This document shows, piece by piece, positions 34,399-61,441 of a DNA stretch of 64,000 nucleotides. The position numbers were made by a program, and so were the translations under genes. Origin of the DNA: Terrimicrobiaceae bacterium (GTDB lineage Bacteria; Verrucomicrobiota; Verrucomicrobiia; Chthoniobacterales; Terrimicrobiaceae); the NCBI GenBank assembly GCA_041746635.1, contig JBGTGQ010000034.1:17309-81308 (forward strand), read 5' to 3'. Position 1 is the first letter of the stretch; each line of letters opens with the position of its first letter. The notes under the pieces are model-generated. The model was given only the letters and a program-made list of their open reading frames with translations, was not told the DNA's origin and did no database searches.

Positions 34399-34400
34399 AG

Positions 34401-41605: not shown

Positions 41606-41630
41606 CAACAAGTGTGCGCGGGAAACCGAC

Positions 41631-42398: not shown

Positions 42399-42430
42399 GA
42401 ATTTCTGTAAGATGGGATAATGTGAACTGA

Positions 42431-43138: not shown

Positions 43139-43180
43139 GAGCGGAGGCGCTTTTTGCCGTATGCGGACATCCTATCCATT

Positions 43181-44656: not shown

Positions 44657-44669
44657 TGGTAGATAGCTA

Positions 44670-45611: not shown

Positions 45612-47329
45612 GCGGGTTGCGGGGCGGCGGCCGCCATGTTTTCTGCCTCATCTTCTGCGCGATACACGAAGGGCGCTCCCTCGATGATCCCGCGGCAAAT
45701 GACACCAAGTCCCGGGTCGGCTTTGTCGGAAAAACTTTCCAGCGAATCGGCCACCATGGTGAAGGGGCGCTTTGTTTTGGGTATTTGCTCCACCACGCGC
45801 AGTGGAATCATCCGGCGGAAGAAGAAATGATAGGCGTACTTCAGCGCGCGCATTTTGGTTACTTCCGGCAAGCGTTGTAGCTTGGGGAGCGCATCGAGCA
45901 AACGAAAGTAAGATTCCGGAGAAGTGGCATCATCGGTCAGACCCTTGTTGCGAATCCACGCTTCCCCGGCCACGATCACCGGAATGCCGATGCTGGTGAG
46001 TTCGACTCCGGTTTTGGTGCCGTAAATGATGGCGGTGTCGCAATCCAACGCCAGCGCATACGTGCTCACGTCTTTCTCGGGACCGATAATCCGGATGTTC
46101 TCAGGGAGCGCGGGAAACAGCCTTGCTATTTCCTCTGCCATCAACTGCCGGGACGGAATACCTCCACGGATCTCCGCCGGATGAACCCTGATGATCAAAT
46201 TCAAGTCCGGCCGTTTGGAAAAATAACGGATGGTCTGCTCGATCCAGTCAAGCATGTTCAAAAATGCATTCGCGCGATAATGCAACTGGGCATCCCAAAT
46301 CACGTTGGTAAGCAGAAGAATGCTTGGCTGGCTTTTTTCAAAATGCAGCTCTTGCCGGATCCGCTCGATATCCTCGGTGGGGTTCTCGTGGAAATAGATC
46401 CAATCCTGGGATCCCTGCCAGCGGCTCTTGAGGTATTCCATGGCCTGTTGCTGAATTTTTTCCGTCCAACTTATCGAATCCCACGTACCGACCGGTTCAT
46501 CGACCAAGGTATGATGATACGTGTCGCCGTGGCTGAAGATAAATCGTTGCTTCCTGTAGGCCACCACCCAGTTGGCGATTCGCACCCCCGACTGACGCGC
46601 GACCTCGCCAATGATTCCCTGCGGAATATAGATCCCGTGATGAAAACTGAGGCAACGAAAGGAACGTGAAGCCAACAGCCGACCCATGGCCATGGCGGTG
46701 AGAAGTGAAGCTTCAAAATAACGCCGCAGAACCGGTTCCGCCGTTTCCTCCTGGCTCAAATCGCCCCGCGCGAAAAAACGCAAGGCCCCCGCGGCGGCGT
46801 GTTCCCCGGCGGACAATCCCCGGAATTTGAAGTCGGGGATGTCGGCCATCGGCGTCTTCTGGGCCAGACGAGACGCAGACTTTTTGTCTCCCTTGGTAAG
46901 GAAGTCGGAATACTTCAAAACCGGCAGCCCGAGTGCTCCATAAGTGCTGTCTCCGGCGCCGAAGCAAGCCTGACAATGATTGGACGGACCCGCTTCCACG
47001 AACTGCCACGGGCTTTTGAACATTTTGAAGGTGCATTGCTCGCAGGCTGTCAGCGCACCGTCACAGAGAAGAAAACTTACCCTTGCCCCCCGCAGGGTCA
47101 GCGCGATGGCGAGCACCATGTCCAATTCGCGCACAGCTGCGTGACCACCCACACTAGACGCCAGTAAAATCTCCGGGCCACTCTGCGCAGCCCGAACGGC
47201 TTTTCGCCACTTATCCCCCTCGCGTTCGAGAAAATCCGCGAGGTGTTTAGGCGGGGGCTGACGCGGTGCGGCCACCGGTCTTTTCGGTGGCAAGAATTTC
47301 CTGAGAAAGGAAAACAGTTCCATTACCAT
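45608..47329 (-). CDS. capsule-biosynthesis (KpsS/KpsC, Capsule_synth)-like GT-B protein with N-terminal Cys cluster
   Basis: 573 aa. LNLIIRVHPAE and AIIYGTKTGVELTSIGIPVIVAGEAW resemble the KpsS/KpsC/LipB family. N-terminal C-x6-C-x2-C ... C-x2-C cluster. The assignment is from motif memory only. Confidence 0.5.
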   Translation of the reverse strand: MVMELFSFLRKFLPPKRPVAAPRQPPPKHLADFLEREGDKWRKAVRAAQSGPEILLASSVGGHAAVRELDMVLAIALTLRGARVSFLLCDGALTACEQCTFKMFKSPWQFVEAGPSNHCQACFGAGDSTYGALGLPVLKYSDFLTKGDKKSASRLAQKTPMADIPDFKFRGLSAGEHAAAGALRFFARGDLSQEETAEPVLRRYFEASLLTAMAMGRLLASRSFRCLSFHHGIYIPQGIIGEVARQSGVRIANWVVAYRKQRFIFSHGDTYHHTLVDEPVGTWDSISWTEKIQQQAMEYLKSRWQGSQDWIYFHENPTEDIERIRQELHFEKSQPSILLLTNVIWDAQLHYRANAFLNMLDWIEQTIRYFSKRPDLNLIIRVHPAEIRGGIPSRQLMAEEIARLFPALPENIRIIGPEKDVSTYALALDCDTAIIYGTKTGVELTSIGIPVIVAGEAWIRNKGLTDDATSPESYFRLLDALPKLQRLPEVTKMRALKYAYHFFFRRMIPLRVVEQIPKTKRPFTMVADSLESFSDKADPGLGVICRGIIEGAPFVYRAEDEAENMAAAAPQPA

Positions 47330-48120
47330 GCGGTCCAGCCACCATCCACCACCACATCGGAACCCGTCATGTATTTTGAAGCCTCGGAAAGCAACAGCAC
47401 GACGGGACCGAAATAATCCTCCGCCGTGGCCATGCGCCCCATGGGCATGCGGTTGAGATAGCCTTTCAGAAACTTTTCATCCTGACCGTCGGAAACTCCA
47501 GCGAGAGTGAGGGTGTTGACCCGCACCCCTTGGGATGCCCAATAAGTGGAAAGATATCTCGTAAGATTGTAAAGAGCCGACTTTGAAGCCGAATAAGCAA
47601 CGGGTTTAAAAAAAGCATTCCCGTCGTTTTCCCGATAAGTGTAGATTCTCTGATCCGGAGAAACCGCGCCATAGATCGAACTAATGTTGATAATGGATCC
47701 GCGGCCGGCCTGCGCCATGGCTCCGCCAAAGACCTGGCAGCAGAGAAACACGCCCTTGACGTTGACATCCATGACCGCATCCCATGATTTTTCCGGGTAG
47801 GTTTCAAACGGCCCGTTTTCTTCCGCCGGGCTGTTGGGAGGTGAGTCGAGAGCGGCATTATTGATTAGGCCGAAAGGCACCTCCCATCGACGGGTGATCA
47901 ACGCCAACGCGGCTTCCAATTCGGATCGCACCAGCACATTGGCGGCCACATGCAGAATCTCATCGTTGGAAACCGCATTTTTCACCGCATCCGCCCGGTC
48001 GATCACCGCCAGTCTCGCACCGCGATCAACCAAACATCTGCTGTATTCGCGGCCAAGGCGGCCCATTCCCCCGGTCACCACCACAACTTTGTTTTCCAGA
48101 GAAAACAGCGGATCATTCAT
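47323..48120 (-). CDS. SDR family oxidoreductase (classical short-chain type)
   Basis: VVVVTGGMGRLG, NNAA and a YSASK catalytic motif. Confidence 0.85.
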   Translation of the reverse strand: MNDPLFSLENKVVVVTGGMGRLGREYSRCLVDRGARLAVIDRADAVKNAVSNDEILHVAANVLVRSELEAALALITRRWEVPFGLINNAALDSPPNSPAEENGPFETYPEKSWDAVMDVNVKGVFLCCQVFGGAMAQAGRGSIINISSIYGAVSPDQRIYTYRENDGNAFFKPVAYSASKSALYNLTRYLSTYWASQGVRVNTLTLAGVSDGQDEKFLKGYLNRMPMGRMATAEDYFGPVVLLLSEASKYMTGSDVVVDGGWTAW

Positions 48121-49091
48121 TAGTAATTTGCTTTCTTTTCATATCCGATGGCTATTTCGCGACAATGTTCGTAAATCCCGCGGCAGTGAGCCTCCATGAA
48201 GGCCGCGTCCTCCGGGGCAACATGGCTCGAGCGGTCGAGCGCATCGGCCAGAATGCCCGGATTGGGGGCCGCGAAAGATGTATCCGCCCGAATTGGCATT
48301 CCGTTAAAGGTCGGGGTCAGAAGCTTTTCGGAAAACGCGATACCCAGATCGCAGCAAAGTGCCGTCATGATCTCGCGGGGGCGGGCAACCAAATCCTCAA
48401 AGATGACGACAAGGACATTCCGGCCCGACTTTTGTAATTGGAGGGCGGCAAGCGTGGAGGCTTGCCAGAGAAAGGCCGCTTCAACGCGATCTCCATAGAC
48501 CTTCGGATCATGCCGTTTGGCCGATGCCAGCCAGGAAACAGGGTCTCTTACCATCGTAATCAAGGCACCATCTGGATAATCGGAAAAAAATCGCTCCGGT
48601 TCACCCGGCATCATGGAAAGCCGGGCGGAAAATGCACACCAGCATTTTACCTCCGCAGGAAAACCATAGTCCGACCAAGCTTGGAAATAACTCCAGACGA
48701 ACCGATCAAGCAAGTTTCGGGGCAAAGGCACGGTGAGCCCCTCACACGCGTCGAGAAAAAGTTGACGATGCTCCCGCACATCCAGCTTGAAATCAAACCG
48801 ATCGGGCGCCGTCACAGCTGCCGGCGAGGCCTTGACATATCCTTTTTGAGCTAATTTCTCCACCAGCGGATCCTCCAGCTGATTGAAGGTCTCATCCGGC
48901 CCAACATAGGAAGGCAAGGCCGCCCAAAAATGCTTGAGACGCGATCCGAATCTCAACTCAGAGTGTCGCACAAGCATTTGAGGATGGCCGTCAAAAAGCT
49001 GGGTTAAGAACGTGCCCCCGCTTCTTTGCACCTGGGAAATCAAGACAAGCGGAGGCGAAAAATCGCTTGGAAATGCCGTATAATTCTCCAT
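48120..49091 (-). CDS. sulfotransferase family protein
   Basis: ISQVQRSGGTFLTQL (5'-PSB-like loop) and ITMVRDPVSWLAS (3'-PB-like RDP motif). ATG at 49091 (MENYTAF). The longer ORF overlaps the upstream gene. Confidence 0.6.
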   Translation of the reverse strand: MENYTAFPSDFSPPLVLISQVQRSGGTFLTQLFDGHPQMLVRHSELRFGSRLKHFWAALPSYVGPDETFNQLEDPLVEKLAQKGYVKASPAAVTAPDRFDFKLDVREHRQLFLDACEGLTVPLPRNLLDRFVWSYFQAWSDYGFPAEVKCWCAFSARLSMMPGEPERFFSDYPDGALITMVRDPVSWLASAKRHDPKVYGDRVEAAFLWQASTLAALQLQKSGRNVLVVIFEDLVARPREIMTALCCDLGIAFSEKLLTPTFNGMPIRADTSFAAPNPGILADALDRSSHVAPEDAAFMEAHCRGIYEHCREIAIGYEKKANY

Positions 49092-49104
49092 CAGGAAATC
49101 CAGA

Positions 49105-49623
49105 TTATTGATGGCTTTGTAGGCGCCAAACGAGATCACAGAATTCGCGCACAGCCCCATGGCCACCGGGCCGCAAGGTCCGAAACCGCGCCAAGGAGAC
49201 CACTTCCTCGACGGCGTCGGCGACCACCACCGGCAAACCCACGACCCGAAGACAGGCCGCATCGTTGACATCGTTGCCCAGAAAAGACGTTTCCTCCATT
49301 TTGAGGTGTTTTTCGGCCAGGAACGAACTCAAGGCCCCCGCCTTGTCTTCACAACCTTGCACGCAGGGTAACTTCAACTTGCGACAGCGCGCGCTCACCA
49401 CCGGATTAACCTCCGTGGAAATAACAACGGCAGAAATGCCGATTGAGCGCAACCGTTCGAGGCCTATGCCATCCGCCCGGCTGCAGCGAACGGATTCCTC
49501 TCCAGTTTCGGAGACATAGACCGCATTGTCGGTAAAAACCCCGTCGAAGTCGAAGGCGGCGCAGCGCAATCGACCCAGCAGCGCGAGATCGGCCTCCGCC
49601 AGGGACGAATACAACTCGCTCAC
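49105..49623 (-). CDS. HAD-superfamily KdsC-type (C0) phosphatase, candidate nonulosonate-9-phosphate phosphatase
   Basis: FDFDGVFTDN (motif I) and GNDVND (motif IV), 172 aa. GTGA overlap with the synthase gene. Confidence 0.8.
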   Translation of the reverse strand: MSELYSSLAEADLALLGRLRCAAFDFDGVFTDNAVYVSETGEESVRCSRADGIGLERLRSIGISAVVISTEVNPVVSARCRKLKLPCVQGCEDKAGALSSFLAEKHLKMEETSFLGNDVNDAACLRVVGLPVVVADAVEEVVSLARFRTLRPGGHGAVREFCDLVWRLQSHQ

Positions 49624-50672
49624 GCCAGATTATCATCCGTGAAAAAATCGTCTTCCGCAAGGGCAGCCTTCAATTTTTTCCCGATAAGTGAATCGATCTC
49701 GTAAGGAGGCATACCTCCCGCAGGCACCTTAATCGCGACGTGCTCGCTGGTGATCACGGTTCCGGCGGGAAGATCCCGCGCGGCGAAGAGGCTCTTGCCC
49801 ATCTTGGTGATGGCGGGGATTTCCTGGGGCAAAACCTGCTTCTCCGGGCTGCCCAGCGCTTCGCGGGCACGCTCCAGATCGCGCACCATCTTGTGCATGC
49901 CGATCGGCTCAAGGGAAAGGGCATGATCCGTTCCCTTCCAAGTATGATTAAGGGTGAAATGCTTCTCGATCACGCGAGCTCCGAGAACATAAGCCGCCAC
50001 GGTCAGGGAGATGCCGTTGAAGTGATCGGAAAGACCGATGACGACATCAGGAAAAGCCTCACGCAGGGTGGGAATGACGCGCAGGTGCATATCCCTCGCC
50101 TCCGTCGGATAAGTCGCCGTGCATTGCAGGAAGCAAAGCTGGGGATTGATCGGAGCGATCTCCTCGTAAACCCGTTTGACATCGTCGAGGGACCCGCCGC
50201 CGGAACTGATAATCATGGGCTTCTTGAACCCGGCAACATGCTTGAGGAGCGGGAGATTCTTCAGATCGGCCGAGGCAATTTTGTACAGCGGCAGGTCGAG
50301 GTCCGCGAGAAAGTCTGCGCTGGCATGATCGAAAGCCGTGGCGAAAAAGTGGATGTCCAGTTCCTTGGCCAGTTGTTGGAATTCGAGATAGTCCTTTTTG
50401 CCAAACTCCAGAAATTCGCGGTGTTCTCCATACGTCTTGCCGAAGCTGTTTTCGTTTTCGTAGGGTTTGTTATAAGCGGCTTTGGTGAAGAGCGTTTTGT
50501 TTTCGCGTTTCTGGAGCTTCACGGCCTGCACACCGGCCATCTTCGCGGCCCGGATGAGGTCGAGAGTTTTCTCCACGTCGCCTTGTCCGTTGTTGCCCAG
50601 TTCGGCAATGACATAACAGTTGCTGTCGTCATCGATGCGGGTGCCTTGAATGGTGAGGTGTCGGTCTTTCAT
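49620..50672 (-). CDS. neuB: nonulosonic acid (sialic acid/KDN) synthase, NeuB family, NANS-like subtype with SAF domain
   Basis: CYVIAELGNNGQGD, GKTYGEHREFLEF, FLQCTATYP, GLSDH, TWKGTDHALSLEP and a C-terminal SAF-like domain. Confidence 0.85.
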   Translation of the reverse strand: MKDRHLTIQGTRIDDDSNCYVIAELGNNGQGDVEKTLDLIRAAKMAGVQAVKLQKRENKTLFTKAAYNKPYENENSFGKTYGEHREFLEFGKKDYLEFQQLAKELDIHFFATAFDHASADFLADLDLPLYKIASADLKNLPLLKHVAGFKKPMIISSGGGSLDDVKRVYEEIAPINPQLCFLQCTATYPTEARDMHLRVIPTLREAFPDVVIGLSDHFNGISLTVAAYVLGARVIEKHFTLNHTWKGTDHALSLEPIGMHKMVRDLERAREALGSPEKQVLPQEIPAITKMGKSLFAARDLPAGTVITSEHVAIKVPAGGMPPYEIDSLIGKKLKAALAEDDFFTDDNLA

Positions 50673-50814
50673 GTATGATGTATGGGTTTTTGATTTTAGA
50701 AATTGAGTTTTTTTGCTAAAACAACGGTTGCAGTGTTTGGGGGTCGGAGCGTTTGAGCGAAGAATGGCGAGGGATGGTTTGTTTCTGACGGAAAATTGCA
50801 GGCTAGACGGAATT

Positions 50815-52176
50815 TCAAGCCCGGTCAGCCAGATTTATTTTCAACTCACGAGCACGCCGCGTGATTTTGGGAATCAATTTGCGGCGGAGCGCTCCCTCGT
50901 CCGATATATACTGCGCCAGTTTGAATAGACGCTTCGGCGTGACGGAGATCGTCATCTCGCGCGATCTCCGCTGGGTGCGAGTGAGAATGTACCTGACCCA
51001 CCATTTGGTCAGCGTTTTTCCAAGGAACAGGCGGGCAGACCAAAGGGAAGCCTGTCGCAACTTGAGATCGAGGACTTCGATCTCCTCGATCTGTCGATCT
51101 CTGGCGGACTTTTCCGTGGGGATCGGTCCGAATCCAGCGCACACCCTTTCGAGGGTTTCGAGACGATATTGCAAAATCTGCCTCAACTGGCGCGCTTCGT
51201 TCAAAAACTCCATTTGCCCACCTTCGGTTCCGCAACCAAAAGAGGAATCCGCCTGCGGCGCTTGAAATTCAAGCAACCTCTCGGAAATATGCTGACGCAA
51301 ACAAACCCCCGCTTCGCGATCACGTTCCTTCTTGTGAGTCTCAATGAACTCCGAAAAGACTTCGCAACCCCATTCGCGTTCTTCGGACGGCACTTCCTCG
51401 GTGAATTTGGCGTGAAAAGATCGCAAGGGATGACGCTCCGGACTCAGATGACGCCGGAGAAAGCTTCCCTGCATCGCGCTCCAAACAGAATGGAGCAAAA
51501 GCTTTTCATATCTGGCTTCGTAAAGGCGCTTGTTTCGCGCGATGCGCTCCTTCCTTTCCTTGCCTCCAATCCAGGAATCACCCTCATGATGACGGAAATG
51601 ATCAATGGCGATCTTCTTGGAAAAAACGACATCCAAGCCAGCCAGCAAGACCCGGGTGGTCAGATCATTGTCAATGAAGTAGTCGCGTAAGTTTTCGTCA
51701 AAGCCTCCCAATTCCCGAAAGACGCTGGTGCGTAATACGCCTTGATTACAATTGAGAACTCCGGTGGTTCCCACGGTGCCAATGAAGGGAAGATGCGCGG
51801 AGGGACCAGTCACATCCTTCACCTTCAAGCTGACTAAACCTATGGAGGAATCCTGGTCGAGAACCTGGACAGCATGCCGCAAGGCACCCGGACGAATGAC
51901 ATTATCATCACTCAACCAGCACAGATAGTCCGTTTTGGCTTGGTCCGCCGCGCGGTTCAAGGCCCACGCCTGACCATTGCGCTCTTTTTCCAAAACGACC
52001 TGAACGTCGGTTTGCGTCTGGAGATACTCCCTCGTTCCATCCGTTGATCCCGCATCGATTACCACAATCGATACAAAATCATAACCTTCGCCGCGCACTA
52101 AAGCAAGACAGCGTTCGAAAAGCGCCTTGCGATTGCAGGTGCCTATCACCACGGTGATACGAGGTCCGTTAGCCAT
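50815..52176 (-). CDS. GT2 glycosyltransferase with a helical C-terminal extension of about 200 aa (paralogue of 58618..59892)
   Basis: ITVVIGTCNRKALFERCL...VIDAGSTDGT...WLSDDN. ATG at 52176 (MANGPR). The tail contains heptad-like stretches (FLNEARQLRQILQYRLETLERV). Confidence 0.75.
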   Translation of the reverse strand: MANGPRITVVIGTCNRKALFERCLALVRGEGYDFVSIVVIDAGSTDGTREYLQTQTDVQVVLEKERNGQAWALNRAADQAKTDYLCWLSDDNVIRPGALRHAVQVLDQDSSIGLVSLKVKDVTGPSAHLPFIGTVGTTGVLNCNQGVLRTSVFRELGGFDENLRDYFIDNDLTTRVLLAGLDVVFSKKIAIDHFRHHEGDSWIGGKERKERIARNKRLYEARYEKLLLHSVWSAMQGSFLRRHLSPERHPLRSFHAKFTEEVPSEEREWGCEVFSEFIETHKKERDREAGVCLRQHISERLLEFQAPQADSSFGCGTEGGQMEFLNEARQLRQILQYRLETLERVCAGFGPIPTEKSARDRQIEEIEVLDLKLRQASLWSARLFLGKTLTKWWVRYILTRTQRRSREMTISVTPKRLFKLAQYISDEGALRRKLIPKITRRARELKINLADRA

Positions 52177-54466
52177 GTTCTGCGGGAAGACTTGCGCGAT
52201 CATTGGACAGACCGTCTGGCGGAAAGACCGAGCTTTTCCACTCCTCAATGTGGCAGGTAAAATCTGTGATGCATGGCGTGAAGGCGGCCGGGGTCAGGAA
52301 ACCGGTTCCATAATAATCCCCTTCCTCAACCAGCAAGAATTCCGGCGGTTTCAGGGTGTCCATTAACTCCCCGTTTATCATGAGTGAGAGAGAAAATGAA
52401 TAGCTCCCCGCCACTAGGGGAAGCTTGGGGAGCATAAAGCAAACTGCTGCCTGATCCGGGAACGGTTCCAGGCTCCCCCCAACCATCCTGCTATCCAATC
52501 CCAAGACACGAACGCCCTCTTTGTTAAGAATCAGGAGCTTGATTTTGGCTTTAGAGATTTCCGCAGCCAACGGGAAAGTTTTCACGCATTTGACGACCAG
52601 GCGGCAGGTCTCTCCGGTGCGAAAGCTGCTGGTCGCACGGTTATGGATATCGCGGGTTTCCAGACTCTGGATCTTGTAGGCGGGAATCTCCTCACCCTCC
52701 AAGTAGCCTCGCATCGGAGGATGCAAGCCTTTCCGCCCCTCAAGGTAACAGATGAATTCCACACAGACAGGAGCAAAAAAGGGCAGGGCGGCACGACAAA
52801 ATCCATAAAAATCACCATCCTCGACAGTAAGCGGGACGTCGGGAACATATTCATCAATCAGTTCCGCATTCATGAAGAGGGAAATCACAAAGGAATATGT
52901 GCCCGCCGCCAAGGGGAGCTTCGGTAACTCAAAATAAATCGTGTCCGCATCAGGAAACGGAACGAACAGAGGCTTCACTAGGCTGCTATCCATTCCAATC
53001 ACGCGGATGCCTTTGTCATTCACAATTGACAGGCGCAGGGTAACCTTCCGAATTTCTTCATTCAGCGGGAAGTTTTTTGCATATTTCACGGCGATGCAAC
53101 ACGGCTCAGCCGTGCGAAAGCTGCTCGTCGCACGGTTATGGATATCGCGGGTTTCCAGACTCAGAATCTTGTAGGCGGGATTTCGCTCACCCTCCAAATA
53201 GCAAGTGAAATCCACGCAAAGAGGAGTAAAGGAAGGGGAGGCCGCGCGACCGGTGCCGTAGAAGTCTCCGTCCTCCACCAAAAAAAAGGCGTCCGGAATA
53301 ACTTTGTCTATCAACTCACCATTCACCGAGAGGGCAAGCGAGAAAGAATACGTGCCCTCCATGAGGGGAAGCTTCGGAATGACGAAACATACCGCACCTG
53401 TGTCGGGAAAAGGAATAAGCTTGGGTTTTACCAAACTGCTATCTAATCCTATAAGGCGATTGCCTTGTTCATTAAGAATCGACAGCCGCAATGTGACTTT
53501 GTCGATGGCTTGCTCTAGGTGGAAGTTATTGGAGTACTTCACGGCGATGCGGCAGGGTTCCCCCGTGCGAAACCTGCCGGCGGGTCGTCCCTGGCCGTCG
53601 CGGGTTTCAACCGCGAGAATTTTATAAGCGGAGTTTTTCGATTCACCCGCCAAGTGAAGGGCTGCGGAGTGCGAGGGAGAATGAACTGCCAGCTTGATAA
53701 TCTGCGCTTTACGATATTCCTCGCAGACCACATCCGTGTCACCGTCCATGCGTACGGTTCCCTTTTCCAACCAGATGACCCGGCTGCACAAGCGTGAAAC
53801 ATGGCCAATACTGTGGCTGACAAAGAGCCCGGTTTGCCCTCCCGAAGCCAGCACCTCAATGCGGTGCAGGCATTTTTCCCGGAAGCCTAGATCACCGACA
53901 GCCAGGACTTCATCGAGAATCATAATTTCGGGCTCGATAATAGCCGCGACGGAGAAAGCCAGGCGCACCCTCATACCGCTGGAATAGCGCTTTACCGGGG
54001 TGTCAATAAATTGATGCAGCTCCGCAAAGTCCAGAATCTCATCAAACTTGCTCTCAATTTCCCCCCGGCTCATACCCAGAACCGCGCCATTGAGAAAAAC
54101 GTTGTCGCGGCCGGTTAGTTCAGGGTGAAATCCTGATCCTACTTCCAGGAGAGTGCCCACCCGGCCATTGATGGTCATTTCCCCTGTTGTGGGGGTCGTG
54201 ACACGGGCGAGAAGCTTCAGCAGGGTGGACTTGCCAGCTCCATTTGTGCCGATGAGTCCGACGGTTTCCCCCTTTTTGATGTCGAAGGAGATGTCTTTGA
54301 GTGCCCAGAATTCCGGCGTGGCGGCGGGCGGAGCCGCAGCGGCTGGTTTACCGCGACGGAAAACACGGTCCCGCCAGCCTCGTAGGTCATCCAGCATCAT
54401 GCGCTGATTCACCGTTCCCAAACGGTATCGTTTGGAAATATTACGGAGGGAGATGGCGATTGGCAT
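52169..54466 (-). CDS. wzt: polysaccharide ABC exporter ATP-binding protein (Wzt/TagH type) with three tandem C-terminal modules
   Basis: Walker A GTNGAGKST, signature YSSGM, Walker B MILDEV. Directly downstream of an ABC-2 permease gene. aa 280-745 form three homologous repeats. Confidence 0.9.
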   Translation of the reverse strand: MPIAISLRNISKRYRLGTVNQRMMLDDLRGWRDRVFRRGKPAAAAPPAATPEFWALKDISFDIKKGETVGLIGTNGAGKSTLLKLLARVTTPTTGEMTINGRVGTLLEVGSGFHPELTGRDNVFLNGAVLGMSRGEIESKFDEILDFAELHQFIDTPVKRYSSGMRVRLAFSVAAIIEPEIMILDEVLAVGDLGFREKCLHRIEVLASGGQTGLFVSHSIGHVSRLCSRVIWLEKGTVRMDGDTDVVCEEYRKAQIIKLAVHSPSHSAALHLAGESKNSAYKILAVETRDGQGRPAGRFRTGEPCRIAVKYSNNFHLEQAIDKVTLRLSILNEQGNRLIGLDSSLVKPKLIPFPDTGAVCFVIPKLPLMEGTYSFSLALSVNGELIDKVIPDAFFLVEDGDFYGTGRAASPSFTPLCVDFTCYLEGERNPAYKILSLETRDIHNRATSSFRTAEPCCIAVKYAKNFPLNEEIRKVTLRLSIVNDKGIRVIGMDSSLVKPLFVPFPDADTIYFELPKLPLAAGTYSFVISLFMNAELIDEYVPDVPLTVEDGDFYGFCRAALPFFAPVCVEFICYLEGRKGLHPPMRGYLEGEEIPAYKIQSLETRDIHNRATSSFRTGETCRLVVKCVKTFPLAAEISKAKIKLLILNKEGVRVLGLDSRMVGGSLEPFPDQAAVCFMLPKLPLVAGSYSFSLSLMINGELMDTLKPPEFLLVEEGDYYGTGFLTPAAFTPCITDFTCHIEEWKSSVFPPDGLSNDRASLPAEHG
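52232..52681 (-). repeat. Wzt C-terminal module copy 3 (aa 596-745)
   Basis: AYKIQSLETRDIHNRATSSFRTGETCRLVVKC...LPLVAGSYSFSLSLMINGELMD...VEEGDYYG...DFTCHIEE. Shares a stretch of about 90 nt, near-identical, with copy 2 (495-nt period). Confidence 0.8.
52682..53176 (-). repeat. Wzt C-terminal module copy 2 (aa 431-595)
   Basis: AYKILSLETRDIHNRATSSFRTAEPCCIAVKY...LPLAAGTYSFVISLFMNAELID...VEDGDFYG...EFICYLEG. Confidence 0.8.
53177..53629 (-). repeat. Wzt C-terminal module copy 1 (aa 280-430)
   Basis: AYKILAVETRD...FRTGEPCRIAVKY...LPLMEGTYSFSLALSVNGELID...VEDGDFYG...DFTCYLEG. Confidence 0.8.
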
Positions 54467-54497
54467 GGTTGAGGGTAATCCGACTTGCGTCAGGAAA

Positions 54498-55346
54498 TTA
54501 AATCGTGTCGGCGAAGTTCTCCTCCGCCCGTTTAAAGGCCCACAGGCCTACGACGAGAAGGATGAGAGTAATGGCCAGGCTAACGAACCATTGCCAGATT
54601 TCAACATCACCCTGTCCCATTAGCGCGAAGCGGAAACTTTCCACAATGGGCACGACGGGATTGATATTCATCAACCACTGGTATTGTTCACCCACCATGG
54701 AGCGGGGAAAGAAAATACAACTGCCATACATCCATAATTGAATGGCAGGAGACACCACCATTTGCAAATCACGGAAGCGCGTCGTGAGCGCCGCTATCAG
54801 ACATCCTACCCCCATGCCCAGTAAAGCCGTTTGAAGAATTAGGGCCGGAATAATAATGACGCGATAACTCGGATGAAGGGGAGCTCCATTCCAATAAAAA
54901 TAGGCATAAAACCCGAGAAAAATGATAAACTGCACCAGAGACAGCCAAAGATTTAGAATAGTCTGGGCGATGGGAATGGTCAGCCTAGGAAAGTAGATCT
55001 TGGTGATCAGAGAGGAGTTGGAAGTGAAAGTTAGCGAGGTCTTAGAAAGACAACTGGAAAAGAAATACCAAACGACAATTCCCGACATGTAAAAGAGAAA
55101 AGGCGGAATCTTATCGGTGGGCAGATTGGCAATGCCTTGGAAGACCAGGGTGAAAGCCACGGTCGTTATCAGGGGCTGGATGAAGTACCATAATGGACCC
55201 ATGACCGTCTGCGAATTAACGGCAATGAAGTCCCGGCGCACGGAAAGCGCGATCAGGTCACGATACTGCCAGATCTCGCGCAATCCGGCCATGATCGAGC
55301 CACGGTTGGTCGTATATTTCCAACTCACAGAGGATGGTTCAGACAT
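54498..55346 (-). CDS. wzm: polysaccharide ABC exporter permease (ABC-2 type, Wzm/TagG/KpsM-like)
   Basis: Six hydrophobic helices. Has ITKIYFPR, RFRD and NPVVP blocks typical of ABC-2 permeases. Confidence 0.9.
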   Translation of the reverse strand: MSEPSSVSWKYTTNRGSIMAGLREIWQYRDLIALSVRRDFIAVNSQTVMGPLWYFIQPLITTVAFTLVFQGIANLPTDKIPPFLFYMSGIVVWYFFSSCLSKTSLTFTSNSSLITKIYFPRLTIPIAQTILNLWLSLVQFIIFLGFYAYFYWNGAPLHPSYRVIIIPALILQTALLGMGVGCLIAALTTRFRDLQMVVSPAIQLWMYGSCIFFPRSMVGEQYQWLMNINPVVPIVESFRFALMGQGDVEIWQWFVSLAITLILLVVGLWAFKRAEENFADTI

Positions 55347-55361
55347 CTTTATCAGTCTTGG

Positions 55362-56336
55362 TTAATGCTTTGCCGAGTCAAGGGAGCGGATTTCAGAAAG
55401 GCCTCGCCCGCGAAGTTTACGGACATAAAGCAGAAATATTCCGACCAGATTCCCGAGTTTGGCGGCGCTGCGAGAGACGGCGAGGGCGTAGTCACGCTCA
55501 GCGGGCTGCTTCCTGCCCCGTTCGCGGAGTAAGGCCGTGAGGAGATTCCGGGGCAGCCACAGAATTTCCTTCACGAACTCGCCGGGGGAAGGATAGGGCA
55601 GCCCAAGTTCAAAACGAATCATGGTATTGGAAAAGGCCGATACATAATACCGGTAGAGAAAATAGGGGAAGCTAAGTTTTCTGGGATCGACATGATGGAA
55701 AACGGGGCATTCCAGTGAGTAATAGATCTTCTGCAAGTTCTCCGGAACGATGTGGCGGTACGTATCGAGCACTTTGCGCTCATCACCGATGACATACTTC
55801 TTGCCCTGCATGCCTCGGGCCGGATCAAAATAGCCCACCTGTCCAAGCACTGCCTTGCGAATGATGAAATTGGCCCCGGTCAACCGGGTCTGACGATAAA
55901 AACCCGACACTTCCACGAATTTTTTGGTTTCATAGGTATCTCGAAACCAACCCGGTCGAGCCGTGGTGTAATAGGGATAGACGGGACCGCCCATGAGGTC
56001 GGGAGTGTGGGTGAGCAGGCACAAAGCCACATTGCAAAGATAATCCTGCGGGATTTTGGCGTCATCATCCAGATAAACCAGATAGTCACCCTGCGCGTGA
56101 TGGCATCCATGGTTGCGCGCCAGGGAGAGGTTGCGGTCCTTAATGCACTCGAACCGGAGGTTTTTGCTTTTGCCCTGGTATTTTTGCACGACCACCGGGG
56201 TTTCGTCGTCGGAATGATTGTCCACGACAAGGATTTCCCAGTCACAGGATGGCGGTGTTGCCGTGCTCAGACTTTCCAGGCAGATCTCCAGCAGGGCGGC
56301 TCGATTAAAAGTGCAAATGATGACCGAAAACAACAT
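55362..56336 (-). CDS. glycosyltransferase family 2 (tandem paralogue B)
   Basis: MLFSVIICTFNRAALLEICLESL...VVDNHSDDET...YLDDDA. ATG at 56336. The 111-codon upstream extension overlaps the neighbouring gene. Confidence 0.85.
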   Translation of the reverse strand: MLFSVIICTFNRAALLEICLESLSTATPPSCDWEILVVDNHSDDETPVVVQKYQGKSKNLRFECIKDRNLSLARNHGCHHAQGDYLVYLDDDAKIPQDYLCNVALCLLTHTPDLMGGPVYPYYTTARPGWFRDTYETKKFVEVSGFYRQTRLTGANFIIRKAVLGQVGYFDPARGMQGKKYVIGDERKVLDTYRHIVPENLQKIYYSLECPVFHHVDPRKLSFPYFLYRYYVSAFSNTMIRFELGLPYPSPGEFVKEILWLPRNLLTALLRERGRKQPAERDYALAVSRSAAKLGNLVGIFLLYVRKLRGRGLSEIRSLDSAKH

Positions 56337-56341
56337 TGCCT

Positions 56342-57304
56342 TCACTGTCTGGGGCTCAGGGGAAATCCGCAGCGAGCGGCGATCGACCGGAGATGCAAGG
56401 TGCACGTTTGCACCAGTTCCCCCAGATTCAGCGCTGCGAGGGCACAAACCATGGCATAATCCCTGTCGTCCCGCTTGCGTTCCTCGAGGAGCCTTCGGGC
56501 AAAGCGGAGGGGCATTCCTGCCATTTCCCTCACCACGATTCGCAACGGAAGCGGTTTCTCTCCAAGTTCCTGACTTATGGCCTTGGTTGAGAACCCGCTG
56601 ACATAATAGCGATACAGAAAATAGGTAAACCGTAATTTGCGAGTATCCACATGGTGCCGCACATGACAATCCAACGCGTAAAATACTTTCTGCTCATCCG
56701 CGGGAGTCAGACGGCGGTAGGCGTCCACCACCTTTCGCTCATCACCAATGACATATTTGTCCGCTTGCATGCCCCACTTGGGGTCAAAGCCTCCCACGTT
56801 CTCGAGGACACTTTTCTTCACGATGAAGTTCGCGCCCGTGGCAATGCGGGGTTGAAGGGAAAAGCCTGAGGCGGAGGCGAACAGCTTTGTCTCATAAGTG
56901 TCGCGAAACCAGGCGGGCTTTCTGGTGGAATAATAGGGATAGACCGGCCCGCTCATGATGTCGGGGGAGTGGTCGTCCAATCGTCGGGCAAGGTTCGCAA
57001 GATAATCGGCCGGGATTTGGGCGTCATCATCGAGATAGACCAAATATTCGCCGCGGGCCTGCCTGCAGCCACGGTTGCGAGCGATGCACAGGTTGCGCTC
57101 CGTCACTTGTTCAAGGCGAAGGCAGTCGAGTCTTGGCTTAAATCTTTGCAGAAGCTGCGGAGTTTCATCCGCAGAATCATTATCCACCACCAAAACCTCC
57201 CACTCGCACGATGGCCGCGCGGCCTGGACGATGCTTTCCAGACAGATCTCCAGCAACCTGGCGCGGTTGTAGGTGCAGATAATGAGCGAGAAAGCGAAAC
57301 TCAT
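56342..57304 (-). CDS. glycosyltransferase family 2 (tandem paralogue A)
   Basis: FSLIICTYNRARLLEICLESI...VVDNDSADET...YLDDDA. Collinear with 55362..56336 over the whole length. Confidence 0.85.
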   Translation of the reverse strand: MSFAFSLIICTYNRARLLEICLESIVQAARPSCEWEVLVVDNDSADETPQLLQRFKPRLDCLRLEQVTERNLCIARNRGCRQARGEYLVYLDDDAQIPADYLANLARRLDDHSPDIMSGPVYPYYSTRKPAWFRDTYETKLFASASGFSLQPRIATGANFIVKKSVLENVGGFDPKWGMQADKYVIGDERKVVDAYRRLTPADEQKVFYALDCHVRHHVDTRKLRFTYFLYRYYVSGFSTKAISQELGEKPLPLRIVVREMAGMPLRFARRLLEERKRDDRDYAMVCALAALNLGELVQTCTLHLRSIAARCGFPLSPRQ

Positions 57305-57330
57305 GGCTGGCGCTCCCGGCGCTTCGGCAT

Positions 57331-58608
57331 TCAGCCGAGAACCTTTGCCCAACGAGCCGTTTTCTGGTCCACCATCTCCTGATCGAAAATGTCGTTCTCG
57401 TGGGTTGACTCGTTGAAGTATTTTTTTTCCTTACCCGTGGCGGCATCTTTGATCCAGCGTTGGGGCCGGGGCCCGGAAGACAACCTCTCCAGCCAAGTGG
57501 CGCGGCGAACCGGCGGATGGGAGGCGAGTTGGCAGATGTAAGAGGTCAGATTTTCAATGGGATCGCCGTAAGCCAGCATCTGCTTCATGGCCCACAAGCG
57601 TAAGCGATCCGACGATCCGCTGGTGCTGGAACTGCTTAGAGCCAGGAACTCCTCCCGGCTAACAATCCGTGGAATATACTGATAGAAGTCGCAATCGAGT
57701 GCCTCAGGCAGGGCGATTGGTTCGACCATGGCGATTTCTTTGCCGGCGATGGAGGCTTCAATCATGGTGGTGCTGAAGGAGGATACCACTGTGTCGCTGG
57801 CCAGAATCCACTCGCGGGCAGATTCATCCTTCAAAATTCGCAAGCGGGGACTGAGAGAGCCGACATGCTCGGCGGCAAAAGCCGCGATTTGTGCGGTGTT
57901 TGTCGCGGGACGGGGACGGAAAATCACCTCCGCATTTCCTTCCCCGGCCAAGTCGCTGCACCATTGAAGAATCAACACCAACGAATCGTGGCAAAACTTC
58001 CTCATGGCCAGAAACTGGCTGGCCTCGGCGCCGCGGGAGATCCAGCGGTCAATCTTACTTTGGGTGACAAAGGCCCAGCGGTAGTTCTCCGGAAAGAAGA
58101 TCCATTTTTTGGCAGGATCCAGATTGTATTTCTCCGCCAGTTCCTCGCGTCCTGTGAAGTAGGACGCATAAGGCGGGCGATAGAGCTGATAAGTTGGGTT
58201 GCCGTTCAAAAAGATATGCTCCTCGGGAACACCGTGCGCAAGAAGGTAGTCTTTCCCGAAATCTCCCCAGGCGTGATGAATGACCTGTTGACGGGCAAAA
58301 TCGTCGGATGGGGCCTTGATGGTCACGTGTGCGTTGTAATGAATCTGCTCCCACGAGAGGTTGAAGTAACGGGCATCCGGCCACGTCGCGATGAAGTCGT
58401 CGTAAGCGAGATCCGAGGTCGTGTAAAAAAAAGGCAGAATAACGGTCTGCGGATTGGCCGTCTGCATCAGCTCCTTGGCATGATAATACAGATTCCGGAT
58501 TTCCAAATCGACACCATGGCGTTGCCGGGCCAGGTGGCGGACCGCGCACGCCACGTCTAATTCCCGTGCAACGTGCTCGATCAGCCAGAGGAAAGGTTTT
58601 TTTTGCAT
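57331..58608 (-). CDS. putative surface-carbohydrate biosynthesis protein (GT-B-like, TagF/KpsS-like C-terminal half)
   Basis: 425 aa. IEHVARELDVACAV N-terminus. C-terminal VVSSFSTTMIEASIAGKEIAMV block. Family assignment is tentative. Confidence 0.45.
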   Translation of the reverse strand: MQKKPFLWLIEHVARELDVACAVRHLARQRHGVDLEIRNLYYHAKELMQTANPQTVILPFFYTTSDLAYDDFIATWPDARYFNLSWEQIHYNAHVTIKAPSDDFARQQVIHHAWGDFGKDYLLAHGVPEEHIFLNGNPTYQLYRPPYASYFTGREELAEKYNLDPAKKWIFFPENYRWAFVTQSKIDRWISRGAEASQFLAMRKFCHDSLVLILQWCSDLAGEGNAEVIFRPRPATNTAQIAAFAAEHVGSLSPRLRILKDESAREWILASDTVVSSFSTTMIEASIAGKEIAMVEPIALPEALDCDFYQYIPRIVSREEFLALSSSSTSGSSDRLRLWAMKQMLAYGDPIENLTSYICQLASHPPVRRATWLERLSSGPRPQRWIKDAATGKEKKYFNESTHENDIFDQEMVDQKTARWAKVLG

Positions 58609-58617
58609 CCGCGTTCG

Positions 58618-59892
58618 TTAGGAGGCAGAAGCCAATCCGGCATATTCGGATAAATAGGAGTCAAGAAGCTGCCTGCATTTTTTTTGAGTGTGAATATCCT
58701 TGACTACTTGATGGGCCTCAATTTCGTCGAGACCACCCAAACCCCGAATGGCATGCAACAACCGATCCGGCCTTTTGTTGCGGCTATGAAGAAAGCGAAG
58801 TAGCCGATATTTCACAAATGCCTTGGCCCAACTCCGATCGTGATTGTACAACACACTCAGGACATCGAACTCGGCGCAATAAGCACGAAAAAGACTTTTG
58901 TTAATTCGCGTAACAAGGGCCGAGATGTCCCGATTTTGTTCCGAAGCCGGAATTTGGCGGGCCAGCGACATCGCTCCTTGTTTGGGAAGGGCTTGGCGAA
59001 GGCAATAGAATGATCCGGGAGAATTAACTTCACTTTTGTCCACGAATGCCGCTCGGAGGAAAAGATGATAGGCCCGTATGGCCTGACAGGCTGATTCGGC
59101 ATCTCTTCTCCAGGGATTAAGCGCCAGTTTCACAATCTCCCATTTGCGCAACCGTTCCTTTTCCCCGATGTTCTTCAGTAAAATATCCAAGGCTAATCGA
59201 GAAAGCGCGGCGTAACGCTCAAAATAGATTTTTTGATTTTTGGACATGCGCTCCTGGCGTGATGCGCTTGTGATCCAGGACGTGGCCTCATGGTCGCGAT
59301 AATGCTCAATGGCAATTTTTCTGGTTAAGGCTATCTCCCACCCACCCAGAAGCACTTTGGTGGTGAGATCATTATCGATCATGTAATCCCGCAAATCCTC
59401 ATCGAACCCTCCCACTGATTCAAAGACCTGCCGTCGAATGATGCCCTGGTTGCAGTTGAGAACGCCCGTTTCCGAAACTCCCCCGATGAAAGGAAGCGTG
59501 GAATAGGGCCCTGTCCTATCCTTGACTTTTAGTCCGAGCATGCCGAGACGGTGGTCGCCTTGCAGACAATGCACCGCATCGGTCAGAATATGAGGTCTAA
59601 CAACATTGTCATCGCTGATCCAACATAGAAATTCGGTTTGCACTTGACCGGCCGCCTCGTTCAAGGCTTTGGCTTGGCCGCGTTTCTCCGTTTCAAAGAT
59701 GACCCGCAAATCTTTTTGTGCTTCAAGATAAATTCGAGAACCGTCGGTCGAGCCGGCGTCGGAAACAACGATCTCCAAAAAGTCCCTCGGATATTCCCGC
59801 AAAGCATCCAGGCATCGTTGAAGATGCTCAATGCGATTGCACGTTCCAACAAGAACGGTAAGAGGCTTGAAGCCTGGCTTGCTATTGTTCAT
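58618..59892 (-). CDS. GT2 glycosyltransferase with helical C-terminal extension (paralogue of 50815..52176)
   Basis: LTVLVGTCNRIEHLQRCL...VSDAGSTDGS...WISDDN. The catalytic domain is collinear with the 50815..52176 product. Confidence 0.8.
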   Translation of the reverse strand: MNNSKPGFKPLTVLVGTCNRIEHLQRCLDALREYPRDFLEIVVSDAGSTDGSRIYLEAQKDLRVIFETEKRGQAKALNEAAGQVQTEFLCWISDDNVVRPHILTDAVHCLQGDHRLGMLGLKVKDRTGPYSTLPFIGGVSETGVLNCNQGIIRRQVFESVGGFDEDLRDYMIDNDLTTKVLLGGWEIALTRKIAIEHYRDHEATSWITSASRQERMSKNQKIYFERYAALSRLALDILLKNIGEKERLRKWEIVKLALNPWRRDAESACQAIRAYHLFLRAAFVDKSEVNSPGSFYCLRQALPKQGAMSLARQIPASEQNRDISALVTRINKSLFRAYCAEFDVLSVLYNHDRSWAKAFVKYRLLRFLHSRNKRPDRLLHAIRGLGGLDEIEAHQVVKDIHTQKKCRQLLDSYLSEYAGLASAS

Positions 59893-59911
59893 CTTAGAGT
59901 CTGTCTGAAAA
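59893..59911. repeat. left arm of a 19-nt imperfect inverted repeat
   Basis: cttagagtctgtctgaaaa abuts the GT2 start codon (59890-59892). 17 of 19 positions are complementary to 60142..60160. Confidence 0.7.
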
Positions 59912-60141
59912 CGAGCGAAAGTAAGTCAAGAGATTCTGCGGAGCATGAGACAAGCTAGGGCCAAGAAAATCCAAGCGCGGGCGCTGCGGGCGGTTTTTGC
60001 AAAAGGCGTTTTGCATCGCCTAAAAAGGCCTGCGGGTAGGAATGGCCAACCGCCTCTTTCGCCTTTGTCAAGCCTATGGGTAACATCCTCTCTGTTTTTT
60101 TGTCACCTATTATGAAATCTTCAAACTTATATCCGAGACCA

Positions 60142-60160
60142 TTTTCAGACAGGCTCTTAG
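60142..60160. repeat. right arm of a 19-nt imperfect inverted repeat
   Basis: ttttcagacaggctcttag lies 33 nt beyond the stop (60193-60195) of the methyltransferase gene. Confidence 0.7.
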
Positions 60161-60192
60161 CAACTTTGAACCGCTTTTCTTATCCAGTCCCC

Positions 60193-61320: not shown

Positions 61321-61441
61321 AGGGAGATCCGGAAAACAGGCAAGCTGCCGCCCTTGGTCGCTCGCGAAATTTCACGAAACCAATTCGGCAAATTCGGGGA
61401 TGTGGGGTGCCGCATCGTGATGCAGCGCGTCGGGCGGGGGC

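Follow-up and report, generated by a model that had tools for sequence, protein, structure and literature searches.

A Wzt-type ABC exporter ATPase bearing three Wzt_C modules in tandem, encoded in a polysaccharide locus of a Verrucomicrobiota bacterium

The window analysed here, a stretch of 64,000 nucleotides from a Terrimicrobiaceae bacterium, carries a wzt gene that, as judged from its sequence, encodes the ATPase subunit of a Wzm/Wzt-type ABC exporter, with a predicted activity in the export of a lipid-linked polysaccharide, and in which the nucleotide-binding domain (NBD) is followed by three tandem Wzt_C modules, M1, M2, and M3. This three-reader Wzt represents a rare, conserved, and previously undescribed layout of an exporter whose reader domain normally occurs once. 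In a set of 1.84 billion representative proteins, those with at least three Wzt_C modules were confined to a single clade, the one that includes the window protein, and more than one module was found in 0 of the 132 unrelated Wzt-like open reading frames in the fetched loci. No description of a three-module Wzt was found in the literature consulted, where Wzt proteins are described with either none or one carbohydrate-binding module, as the preliminary description of this sequence had also stated for the characterized representatives.

The assignment to Wzt follows from the NBD and from the gene neighborhood (Table 1). The reading frame of the gene is intact, and a protein identical to the window Wzt is present in the NCBI-derived collection (P0001). 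Pfam ABC_tran is matched at aa 56–187 (86 bits), and the Walker A (GTNGAGKST), signature (YSSGM), Walker B (ILDE), and H-loop (SHS) motifs can all be read in the translation. Matches to the NBD in PDB are the Aquifex Wzt (6AMX, 7K2T, 8DKU) and TagH (7DD0), with E values of 1e-57 to 3e-59, and the NCBIfam models for the galactan (Wzt/RfbE) and the teichoic acid (TagH) exporter ATPases are matched with E ~1e-56, in both cases under the full-length equivalog cut-offs of these models, all indicative of an NBD that belongs to the Wzt/TagH/RfbE type and has retained its catalytic motifs. The gene for the permease partner, wzm, is positioned 31 nt upstream of wzt on the same strand, and its product is 82–95% identical across the loci of the clade. 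The C-terminal tail of the window Wzt, with pLDDT below 50 at residues 474–494 of the tri-module model, resembles the tail of a relative, P0004.

Table 1. Positions, in the window, of the wzt gene, its domains and the locus genes discussed in the text.
Feature	Position	Strand	Basis or remark
wzt (ABC exporter ATPase, 765 aa; Wzt_C modules M1–M3)	52169..54466	-	ORF and Pfam
wzt stop codon	52169..52171	-	
NBD, aa 1–255	53702..54466	-	PDB and NCBIfam matches, motifs
NBD-to-M1 connector, aa 256–278	53633..53701	-	Gap between end of NBD match and start of M1
M1, NBD-proximal Wzt_C domain, aa 279–426	53189..53632	-	Pfam, AF2, Foldseek
M1-M2 linker, 3 aa	53180..53188	-	Clade comparison
M2, aa 430–577	52736..53179	-	Pfam Wzt_C, identity to M1
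Gene-conversion tract, M2 copy (module aa 1–24)	53108..53179	-	Repeat D1, identity contrast
M2-M3 linker, 17 aa (GRKGLHPP...)	52685..52735	-	Homologous to C-terminal tail of two-module relatives
M3, aa 595–742	52241..52684	-	Pfam Wzt_C, orthology
Gene-conversion tract, M3 copy (module aa 1–24)	52613..52684	-	Repeat D1, identity contrast
C-terminal tail, aa 743–765 (EEWKSS..PP..)	52172..52240	-	Predicted disordered
wzm, ABC-2 permease partner	54498..55346	-	Pfam ABC2_membrane, 66.5 bits
Block upstream of wzm: GT2, TIGR04396-like 425-aa protein, GT2, GT2	55362..59892	-	
GT2 glycosyltransferase directly downstream of wzt	50815..52248	-	Absent from one-module L154
Conserved ulosonic-acid core	45608..50672	-	Kept even in one-module L154
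NeuB-type synthase	49620..50672	-	Ulosonic-acid core
KdsC/KDN-9-P-phosphatase-like HAD	49105..49623	-	Ulosonic-acid core
Sulfotransferase (ORF as listed; relatives 313 aa)	48120..49271	-	Pfam Sulfotransfer_3; variable in clade
SDR	47323..48120	-	Ulosonic-acid core
Capsule_synth (KpsC/KpsS-like) transferase, putative	45608..47329	-	Ulosonic-acid core; activity inferred
CMP-ulosonic acid synthetase (PseF/KdsB-like cytidylyltransferase)	39634..40404	-	
TylF-like O-methyltransferase	60193..61320	-	Candidate terminal-modification enzyme

When the whole protein is compared to Pfam Wzt_C (94.9 bits; gathering score 30.4), three stretches are matched behind a normal NBD, as expected from the preliminary description, and, when taken alone, M1, M2, and M3 score 45.9, 30.1, and 27.4 bits, the latter two falling just under the gathering score (E 5e-7 and 4e-6, respectively). 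A module profile matches the Aquifex carbohydrate-binding domain (CBD) among the PDB sequences (6O14, 8DKY, 7K2T; E ~3e-8). The AF2 model of M1 (pLDDT 93.7) finds exclusively Wzt CBDs as its best 17 Foldseek matches in PDB (TM 0.54–0.68), including 5HNO/5HNP and 2R5O, the latter being the E. coli O9a domain with which a comparison had been proposed. The tri-module model, whose pTM of 0.38 denotes low confidence for the domain arrangement, predicts one strand pattern three times over. These data support the identity of all three modules as true Wzt_C carbohydrate-binding domains of a predicted jelly-roll fold; for M2 and M3 the fold is assigned because they are 53–61% identical to M1 and share its strand pattern, the high-confidence model being that of M1. 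Of the 12 invariant or nearly invariant positions of the family, as read by eye from the alignments, all are kept in M1 and M2, whereas a single conservative substitution (F to Y) is present in M3. The modules had also been said to share their start and end motifs: AYKI indeed opens each of them (aa 280, 431, and 596), and a C-terminal strand of the DFTCY type is present in all three by sequence and model, but of the DF endings only those of M1 (DFTCY, aa 419) and M3 (DFTCH, aa 735) stand, M2 ending with EFICY (aa 570).

The three modules are shown by their sequences to be old and distinct paralogues, each under purifying selection. Their age is evident from amino acid identities of 61% for M1-M2 and 53% for both M1-M3 and M2-M3, along with saturation of the synonymous sites: M2 and M3 are 61% identical in nucleotides overall and 45% at third positions (pS 0.67). 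As M1 and M2 are the closest pair, the earlier view of copy 1 as the most diverged does not hold. Values of dN/dS are 0.02–0.08 for M1 against the orthologs of the window protein (up to ~0.11 between other clade members), 0.07–0.13 for M2, and 0.12–0.25 for M3. Against this background, a direct repeat (D1; 151 nt, 80% identity) connects M2 and M3 at a spacing of exactly 495 nt, and the first 60 nt of these modules are 93–97% identical, the probability of at least 57 matches in 60 at the background of 56% being ~1e-11. The period noted previously is thus exact, and the best 90-nt window reaches 86%. The tract copies are 92% identical in amino acids, versus 45% for the remainder of M2 and M3, and the shared SLETRDIHNRATSSFRT patch is absent from every M2 or M3 ortholog. 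By these sequence contrasts, the near-identical stretch is a gene-conversion tract of 60–70 nt specific to the lineage of the window, and the recent duplication that had been proposed from it is contradicted by the divergence and saturation outside of the patch, as well as by the lack of the patch in the orthologs.

The relatives of the window protein fall into seven clusters at 90% identity, from uncultured, Verrucomicrobiota-type organisms, with two, three, or four modules encoded in syntenic loci, and their modules form positional orthology groups across all seven. M1 is the most conserved (orthologs 64–93% identical) and is also the nearest to the CBD of the one-module outgroup (35–39%, versus 27–33% for the M2 and M3 types). 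The M2 orthologs are 72–79% identical, and M3 is orthologous to the third module of P0004 (68%) and to the fourth of P0002 (57%). The linker pattern is strictly conserved in 13 loci of the clade, with 3–4 aa between M1 and M2, 17–23 aa between M2 and M3, and 3 aa between M3 and M4. Module number may have grown from one to two, and then to three or four, by appending units behind the old C-terminal tail and by duplication of M2 along with its tail. Each orthology group maintains conserved motifs of its own, including at the strand and loop aligned to the cap pocket of Aquifex (T346/A348/H350/W362; PMC9445017), a low-confidence mapping at ~20% identity.

The wzm-wzt pair is part of a locus of ~45 glycan-synthesis genes, wzt directly following wzm, and its surroundings include no fewer than 16 glycosyltransferase genes, along with genes for sugar modification. 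The downstream GT2 reading frame runs, in its listed form, into the end of wzt; in the relatives this gene encodes 451 aa and overlaps the wzt stop by ~8 nt. The block upstream of wzm, found in every multi-module locus that covers the region, is missing from L154, the nearest locus with one module. The latter possesses the same ulosonic-acid core while lacking the sulfotransferase and five genes that flank wzm-wzt, four for GT2 glycosyltransferases and one unassigned, and this contrast between one and two or more modules, resting on one outgroup locus, amounts to a single evolutionary event. Wherever an M3-type module was seen, as in the window and L081/L088, the locus also had the sulfotransferase, a weak and partial association in which two independent M3 lineages were scorable. 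However, L089 encodes both the sulfotransferase and the TylF-like methyltransferase and yet has a two-module Wzt nearly identical to that of L082, which has no sulfotransferase, counting against a simple rule of one module per modification. The methyltransferase is also present in the window and in L153 and is absent from L082, the remaining loci of the clade either ending short of it or not allowing its presence to be judged. For the 573-aa Capsule_synth-like protein, no sequence match was found in PDB.

Of the known systems, the WzmWzt of Aquifex aeolicus (7K2T, 8DKU, 8DL0; CBD 6O14, 8DKY) is the best match in both sequence and fold, for the NBD as well as for the module, with its CBD occupying ranks 1–5 in the Foldseek search with M1. 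It shares with the window system the wzm-wzt gene pair and the NBD-connector-CBD order, but has one CBD per chain, compared to three per chain, and thus six per transporter, in the window system. Its two CBDs form one dimer, docked asymmetrically on one NBD, through exchange of C-terminal strands, as is canonical for these domains; the CBD binds 3-O-methyl-mannose weakly (~234 uM) and is able to act in trans, and the glycan pocket is at the CBD-NBD interface (PMC9445017). By HMM alignment, the window modules lack the four-residue trap-loop insertion and the cap-stacking Trp362 of Aquifex. Another example is the single CBD of the Klebsiella pneumoniae O12/Raoultella terrigena Wzt (5HNO, 5HNP), a reader of the beta-Kdo cap, of the same fold as M1 (Foldseek E ~1e-5, TM 0.64–0.68) and of marginal sequence similarity to a window module (E 0.8). 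A third is the single methyl-phosphate cap reader of E. coli O9a (2R5O), with the same jelly-roll (Foldseek E 7e-6, TM 0.65), which allows export of terminated chains only (PMC11231755), a gating logic that, by analogy, may also apply to the window exporter. In O9a, chains are terminated by WbdD, a kinase and methyltransferase to which no similar protein was identified in the window locus.

The best explanation at present, to which we give an even chance, is that the three modules form an array of differentiated readers. M1 would probably keep the canonical role that the Wzt proteins of Aquifex, E. coli O9a, and Klebsiella O12 exemplify, sitting on the NBD, forming a dimer with its counterpart in the second Wzt, and binding the non-reducing-end cap, to only let finished chains enter the channel. 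Conservation of the genes for NeuB, the phosphatase, the CMP-transferase, and the KpsC/S-like protein suggests that this cap is an ulosonic acid, which the presence of such a pathway and of a KpsC/KpsS-family transferase makes plausible by analogy with Klebsiella O12. M2 and M3 would be placed further out, with the core motifs of the family and with conserved surfaces of their own, and would most likely bind other features of the cargo, either terminal or near-terminal modifications that are alternative or additional to the cap or a second glycoform built by the extra glycosyltransferases, recruiting this cargo to the pump and handing it over to the M1/NBD site. The action of CBDs in trans and a pocket at the CBD-NBD interface fit such a combination of a proximal canonical site with distal capture modules, and group-specific signatures, as well as a module number that differs from one syntenic locus to the next, speak for different specificities. 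A more daring proposal, for which the odds are well under even, is of a combinatorial checkpoint, with M1 verifying the conserved, ulosonic-acid-type cap and M2/M3 recognizing additional or alternative marks, for instance termini that carry sulfate or a second glycoform due to the added GT2 genes. If this were true, a single exporter would give passage to several finished glycans of distinct chemistry, and the number of readers would follow the chemistry of the locus by module gain and loss.

Alternatively, and with a probability of perhaps one in four, all three modules may read the same cap or repeat unit, the six sites per dimer raising the capture of a scarce or weakly bound substrate. Tandem carbohydrate-binding modules of identical specificity are common in glycoside hydrolases, a precedent for such an avidity array, and retention of the conserved family motifs in all modules, as well as the occurrence of two-module Wzt proteins both with (L089) and without (L082) the sulfotransferase, which shows module number not to be tightly tied to the modification genes, are in line with it, as is the weak binding by single Wzt CBDs, of which Aquifex is the example (PMC9445017). 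However, the modules are only 53–61% identical, and each of their groups conserves a different sequence on the very strands to which the known cap pocket maps; moreover, if multivalency alone mattered, concerted evolution would be expected, while one conversion tract is seen.

A role for M2 and M3 other than reading appears rather improbable, though it has some points in its favor. These modules may have lost glycan binding and serve as a spacer, as a scaffold for dimerization, or as a platform on which biosynthetic or terminating enzymes dock, and the short-long-short linkers might reflect pairing within the chain (M1 with M2, M3 with M4), in imitation of the strand-swapped CBD dimer. The invariance of the linker pattern, the canonical mode of CBD dimerization (PMC9445017), and the Pfam scores of M2 and M3, lower than that of M1, agree with this. 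Nevertheless, a protein partner is without any support, the inter-module geometry comes from the low-pTM model, M3 would be left unpaired in the three-module forms, and strong purifying selection together with group-specific surface motifs fit ligand binding at least as well. As to the extra modules being functionless leftovers of duplication, or an artefact of assembly or annotation, misassembly can create intragenic repeats, and the 90% cluster of the window protein has a single member. However, this explanation is effectively refuted and retains a very slight probability: the frame is intact, each module has a pN/pS well under 1, and forms with two, three, and four modules are present in many independent assemblies and in syntenic loci. 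The 771-aa form (11 cluster members) and the 906-aa form (5 members) recur across independent assemblies from ENA, JGI, and Logan, on contigs of up to 108 kb. An assembly artefact is ruled out, as an assembler cannot confuse, and so collapse or expand, copies that differ at ~40% of their nucleotides.

Two further arrangements were noted outside of the clade. In the family of P0121 and P0134, ABC-ATPase-like proteins with two Wzt_C modules, the tandem arrangement occurs independently; ABC_tran is matched weakly (27.5 bits) or not at all, wzm is not adjacent in L151, and these may not be the same kind of transporter ATPase. In a Flavobacteriales MAG (L006), and also in L005, both unrelated to the window clade, one wzm is accompanied by two separate single-CBD wzt genes, thus offering more than one reader to apparently one permease, but on separate ATPase chains, an alternative route to a multi-reader exporter.

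In the exporter ATPase encoded by wzt of the window, three Wzt_C domains, conserved and distinct from one another, stand in tandem, which confirms the core observation of the preliminary description. Pfam searches of the entire protein place ABC_tran at aa 56-187 and Wzt_C (PF14524) in three stretches behind it (94.9 bits versus a gathering score of 30.4), and each of the modules, M1, M2, and M3, also matches alone (Table). The nucleotide-binding domain (NBD) is of the typical Wzt/TagH/RfbE type, matching the Aquifex Wzt and TagH structures (E 1e-57 to 3e-59) and the NCBIfam exporter-ATPase models (E about 1e-56), with the Walker A, signature, Walker B, and H-loop motifs complete, as read from the translation. 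A 23-aa connector joins the NBD to M1, linkers of 3 and 17 aa separate M1 from M2 and M2 from M3, and a 23-aa tail follows M3. As to the fold, a profile of the window modules and their relatives matches the Aquifex Wzt carbohydrate-binding domain (CBD) in the PDB (E about 3e-8), and, with an AlphaFold model of M1 (pLDDT 93.7, pTM 0.88) as the Foldseek query, the best 17 PDB matches are all Wzt CBDs (TM 0.54-0.68), including those of Aquifex (8DL0, 7K2T, 8DKY, 6O14), Escherichia coli O9a (2R5O), and the Kdo-cap reader (5HNO, 5HNP). The protein thus belongs to the Wzt family, and the modules to Wzt_C.

Coordinates of the features discussed, as window positions
Feature	Position	Strand	Protein or residues	Wzt_C on its own (bits)
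wzt	52169..54466	-	765 aa	
M1	53189..53632	-	aa 279-426	45.9
M2	52736..53179	-	aa 430-577	30.1
M3	52241..52684	-	aa 595-742	27.4
wzm (ABC-2 permease)	54498..55346			
Run of about 45 co-directional genes	8087..61960			
TIGR04396-like protein	57331..58608	-	425 aa	
Capsule_synth-like protein	45608..47329	-	573 aa	
Low-GC stretch	34000-40000			
ORF in low-GC stretch	36575..38974	-	799 aa	
Transketolase-like protein	31546..33459	-		

While the architecture described earlier stands, the age and the relationships proposed for the copies do not. From the stretch shared by M2 and M3, the preliminary description took at least one duplication to look recent, and it had M1 as the more diverged copy. Amino acid identities are 61% for M1-M2 and 53% for both M1-M3 and M2-M3, so the closest pair is M1-M2, not M2-M3; third-codon-position identity is down to 36-45%, with pS (0.67-0.75) saturated, and the modules are old paralogues. 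The near-identical M2/M3 stretch with a period of 495 nt does exist, but it covers only the first 24 residues (92% identical), the other 124 being 45% identical, and the shared SLETRDIHNRATSSFRT sequence was found in none of the M2 or M3 orthologs from other genomes. Restricted to the module start and absent from orthologs, this stretch is a short gene-conversion tract confined to the window lineage. Tandem Repeats Finder reported no repeat in wzt, as the copies are too diverged, and the repeat is detectable only at the protein level and as a single 151-nt patch. Recent duplication is therefore ruled out by module divergence, saturated pS, and the confinement of the tract. An assembly artefact is likewise ruled out, by the divergence of the copies and by recurrence of the long forms in many independent assemblies, and we regard it as very improbable that the extra modules are junk.

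How common are such proteins? Among the best 120 of 8000 homologs, 113 measure 420-480 aa and possess zero or one module, while seven clusters at 90% identity are longer, with two modules (P0005, P0006, and P0007, 600-601 aa), three modules (P0001, which is the window protein, P0003, and P0004, 765-771 aa), or four modules (P0002, 906 aa, on contigs of 6.2 kb or less). The MAGs behind two of these (P0005, P0006) carry the source names Terrimicrobiaceae and Verrucomicrobiota, on which the taxonomy is based, and a scan of GTDB species representatives found no close relative, the best being at about 45-60% in the NBD. A module profile, sensitive mainly to the Wzt_C subfamily of the window, which bounds the estimate of rarity, produced 4878 matches in 1.84 billion representative proteins; the best 150 of these, where every protein holding at least two good modules has to rank, include only four with multiple stretches (three stretches in the window cluster, two each in P0007, P0121, and P0134). 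None of 132 unrelated Wzt-like ORFs in the fetched loci has more than one module. When the module alignment served as a profile against the 90%-clustered database, the word index let through short single-module fragments only, and this search is of no use as a census. At a per-stretch E of at most 1e-5, Pfam Wzt_C recovers 3 of 4 modules in P0002, 2 of 3 in P0004, and 1 of 2 in P0006, so architecture surveys based on Pfam would miss tandem Wzt_C proteins, which have probably been overlooked in databases. Full-text literature searches found no description of a Wzt bearing more than one such domain. The three- and four-module proteins thus combine a known family and a known domain in an architecture that is new, rare, and evolutionarily maintained.

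One apparent further case, a 920-aa multi-module Wzt suggested by match length in locus L006 (Flavobacteriales MAG JBBQZU010000046.1, 4085-8220), turned out to be two separate genes: wzm is followed there by two wzt genes of one CBD each (419 and 423 aa), separated by a small 239-aa gene and providing two readers for one permease, in contrast to the tandem fusion of the window clade. Locus L005 also has two Wzt-like ATPase genes. P0121 (L151, 8001-9869) and P0134 represent a separate family, in which two tandem Wzt_C domains follow an ABC domain that is weak in P0121 (ABC_tran 27.5 bits) and undetectable in P0134. The P0121 gene in L151 has no wzm beside it, its neighbors being dTDP-sugar and aminotransferase genes, and this family may represent a non-transport glycan-binding ATPase-like protein.

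The modules fall into positional orthology groups. First modules are 64-93% identical to each other, window M2 clusters with the second modules of P0003, P0005, and P0006 (72-79%), and window M3 with the third module of P0004 (68%) and the fourth of P0002 (57%). The GRKGLHPP... linker that follows M2 and the C-terminal tail of two-module proteins are homologous; M3 was therefore added after an ancestral tail. The third module of P0003 is an independent duplication of M2 plus the GRKGLHPP-type tail. Nei-Gojobori dN/dS, from pairs including the window and, for the upper M3 value, the recent L081/L088 pair, is 0.03-0.05 for the NBD, 0.02-0.08 for M1, the slowest-evolving module, 0.07-0.13 for M2, and 0.12-0.25 for M3; dS is saturated in distant pairs, and pN is far below pS in all pairs. 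As judged from these substitution patterns, each of the modules is under purifying selection.

The carbohydrate-binding domain of Wzt is the textbook case of an ABC exporter checking the quality of its substrate, with one domain reading one cap. Three such domains in one protein invite several explanations. M1 is proximal to the NBD, evolves most slowly, and is nearest to the single CBD of the outgroup (35-39% identity versus 27-33% for the M2 and M3 types). Cap reading and docking, the canonical role, have probably stayed with M1, by analogy with Aquifex, whose CBD dimer docks on a single NBD, with the glycan pocket at the CBD-NBD interface and a CBD able to act in trans (PMC9445017). In M2 and M3 the family invariant motifs are retained, and the strands aligning with the Aquifex cap pocket bear a conserved signature particular to each module; these two probably recognize other cargo features and pass the cargo to the proximal site. 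We give about even odds to such a set of differentiated readers. Pure avidity, with all modules serving one ligand, is less likely, and still less probable is a non-reader role in scaffolding or pairing. The linkers, short, long, and short (3-4, 17-23, and 3 aa), are strictly kept in length in 13 of 13 loci, a pattern hinting that M1 may pair with M2 and M3 with M4. An AF2 run on all three modules, aimed at intramolecular pairing, repeated one strand pattern three times over, with no confident inter-domain geometry (pLDDT 65.6, pTM 0.38, from 6 sequences only).

Syntenic loci with one, two, three, and four readers make a natural series for testing substrate licensing: whether one exporter licenses several glycans, how cargo passes from distal readers to the composite NBD-CBD site, and how an Aquifex-type asymmetric CBD dimer copes with six domains. 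The readers, being modular, could also be exchanged to retarget glycan export in glycoengineering. To specialists the series should be a moderate surprise; the organisms are uncultured, and the function is predicted.

The window pair, wzm followed by wzt, whose end is overlapped by a downstream GT2 gene, lies within the co-directional run, which encodes at least 16 glycosyltransferases plus a GT9-family protein, five methyltransferases, two hexapeptide acyltransferases, one sulfotransferase, and an ulosonic-acid pathway (NeuB-type synthase, KdsC/KDN-9-P-phosphatase-like HAD, PseF-like CMP-transferase, and KpsC/KpsS-family transferase). The window holds no second Wzt-type ATPase. Loci of the multi-module clade are mutually syntenic, and the locus of the closest one-module relative, P0008 (L154), shares a core at 50-73% identity (orf172, wzm, wzt, NeuB, HAD, SDR, Capsule_synth-like, epimerase, aldehyde dehydrogenase, and CMP-transferase), while lacking the sulfotransferase and five genes that flank wzm-wzt in the clade, four for GT2 glycosyltransferases and one for a TIGR04396-like protein. 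The sulfotransferase is present in three loci with three modules (the window, L081, L088) and in two-module L089, and is absent from five two-module loci (L082, L083, L085, L086, L153). M3-type modules were thus seen only where it is present and the converse fails, in loci that are few, phylogenetically dependent, and too few for statistics; the idea of M3 as a sulfate reader, clean in the first five loci, was weakened by L089. The Wzt proteins of L082 and L089 are nearly identical (pN 0.003-0.018), yet L089 alone of the two has the sulfotransferase and a TylF-like methyltransferase: turnover is faster for modification genes than for the exporter.

Other genes of the locus deserve mention. The TIGR04396-like protein, encoded between GT2 genes just upstream of wzm, is 84-87% conserved in the clade and missing from L154; it has no Pfam match, resembles weakly TIGR04396 (surface carbohydrate biosynthesis protein) and the BFO_1060 glycosyltransferase family, and is a candidate polymerase or terminator. 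The Capsule_synth-like protein (a weak match to the KpsC/KpsS family; 84-85% conserved in the clade and 58% in P0008's locus, L154) is a candidate transferase for the ulosonic acid and may be the enzyme that adds the cap; it has no sequence relative in the PDB and no NCBIfam match, so its likeness to a beta-Kdo-transferase is put forward by analogy. The low-GC stretch (46-51% versus about 58% around it), including an ORF with no Pfam or NCBIfam match, may be a horizontally acquired sub-cluster. The full transketolase-like protein (N, pyrimidine-binding, and C domains), whose gene is also found at the edge of L154, may make a branched-chain or two-carbon-extended sugar.
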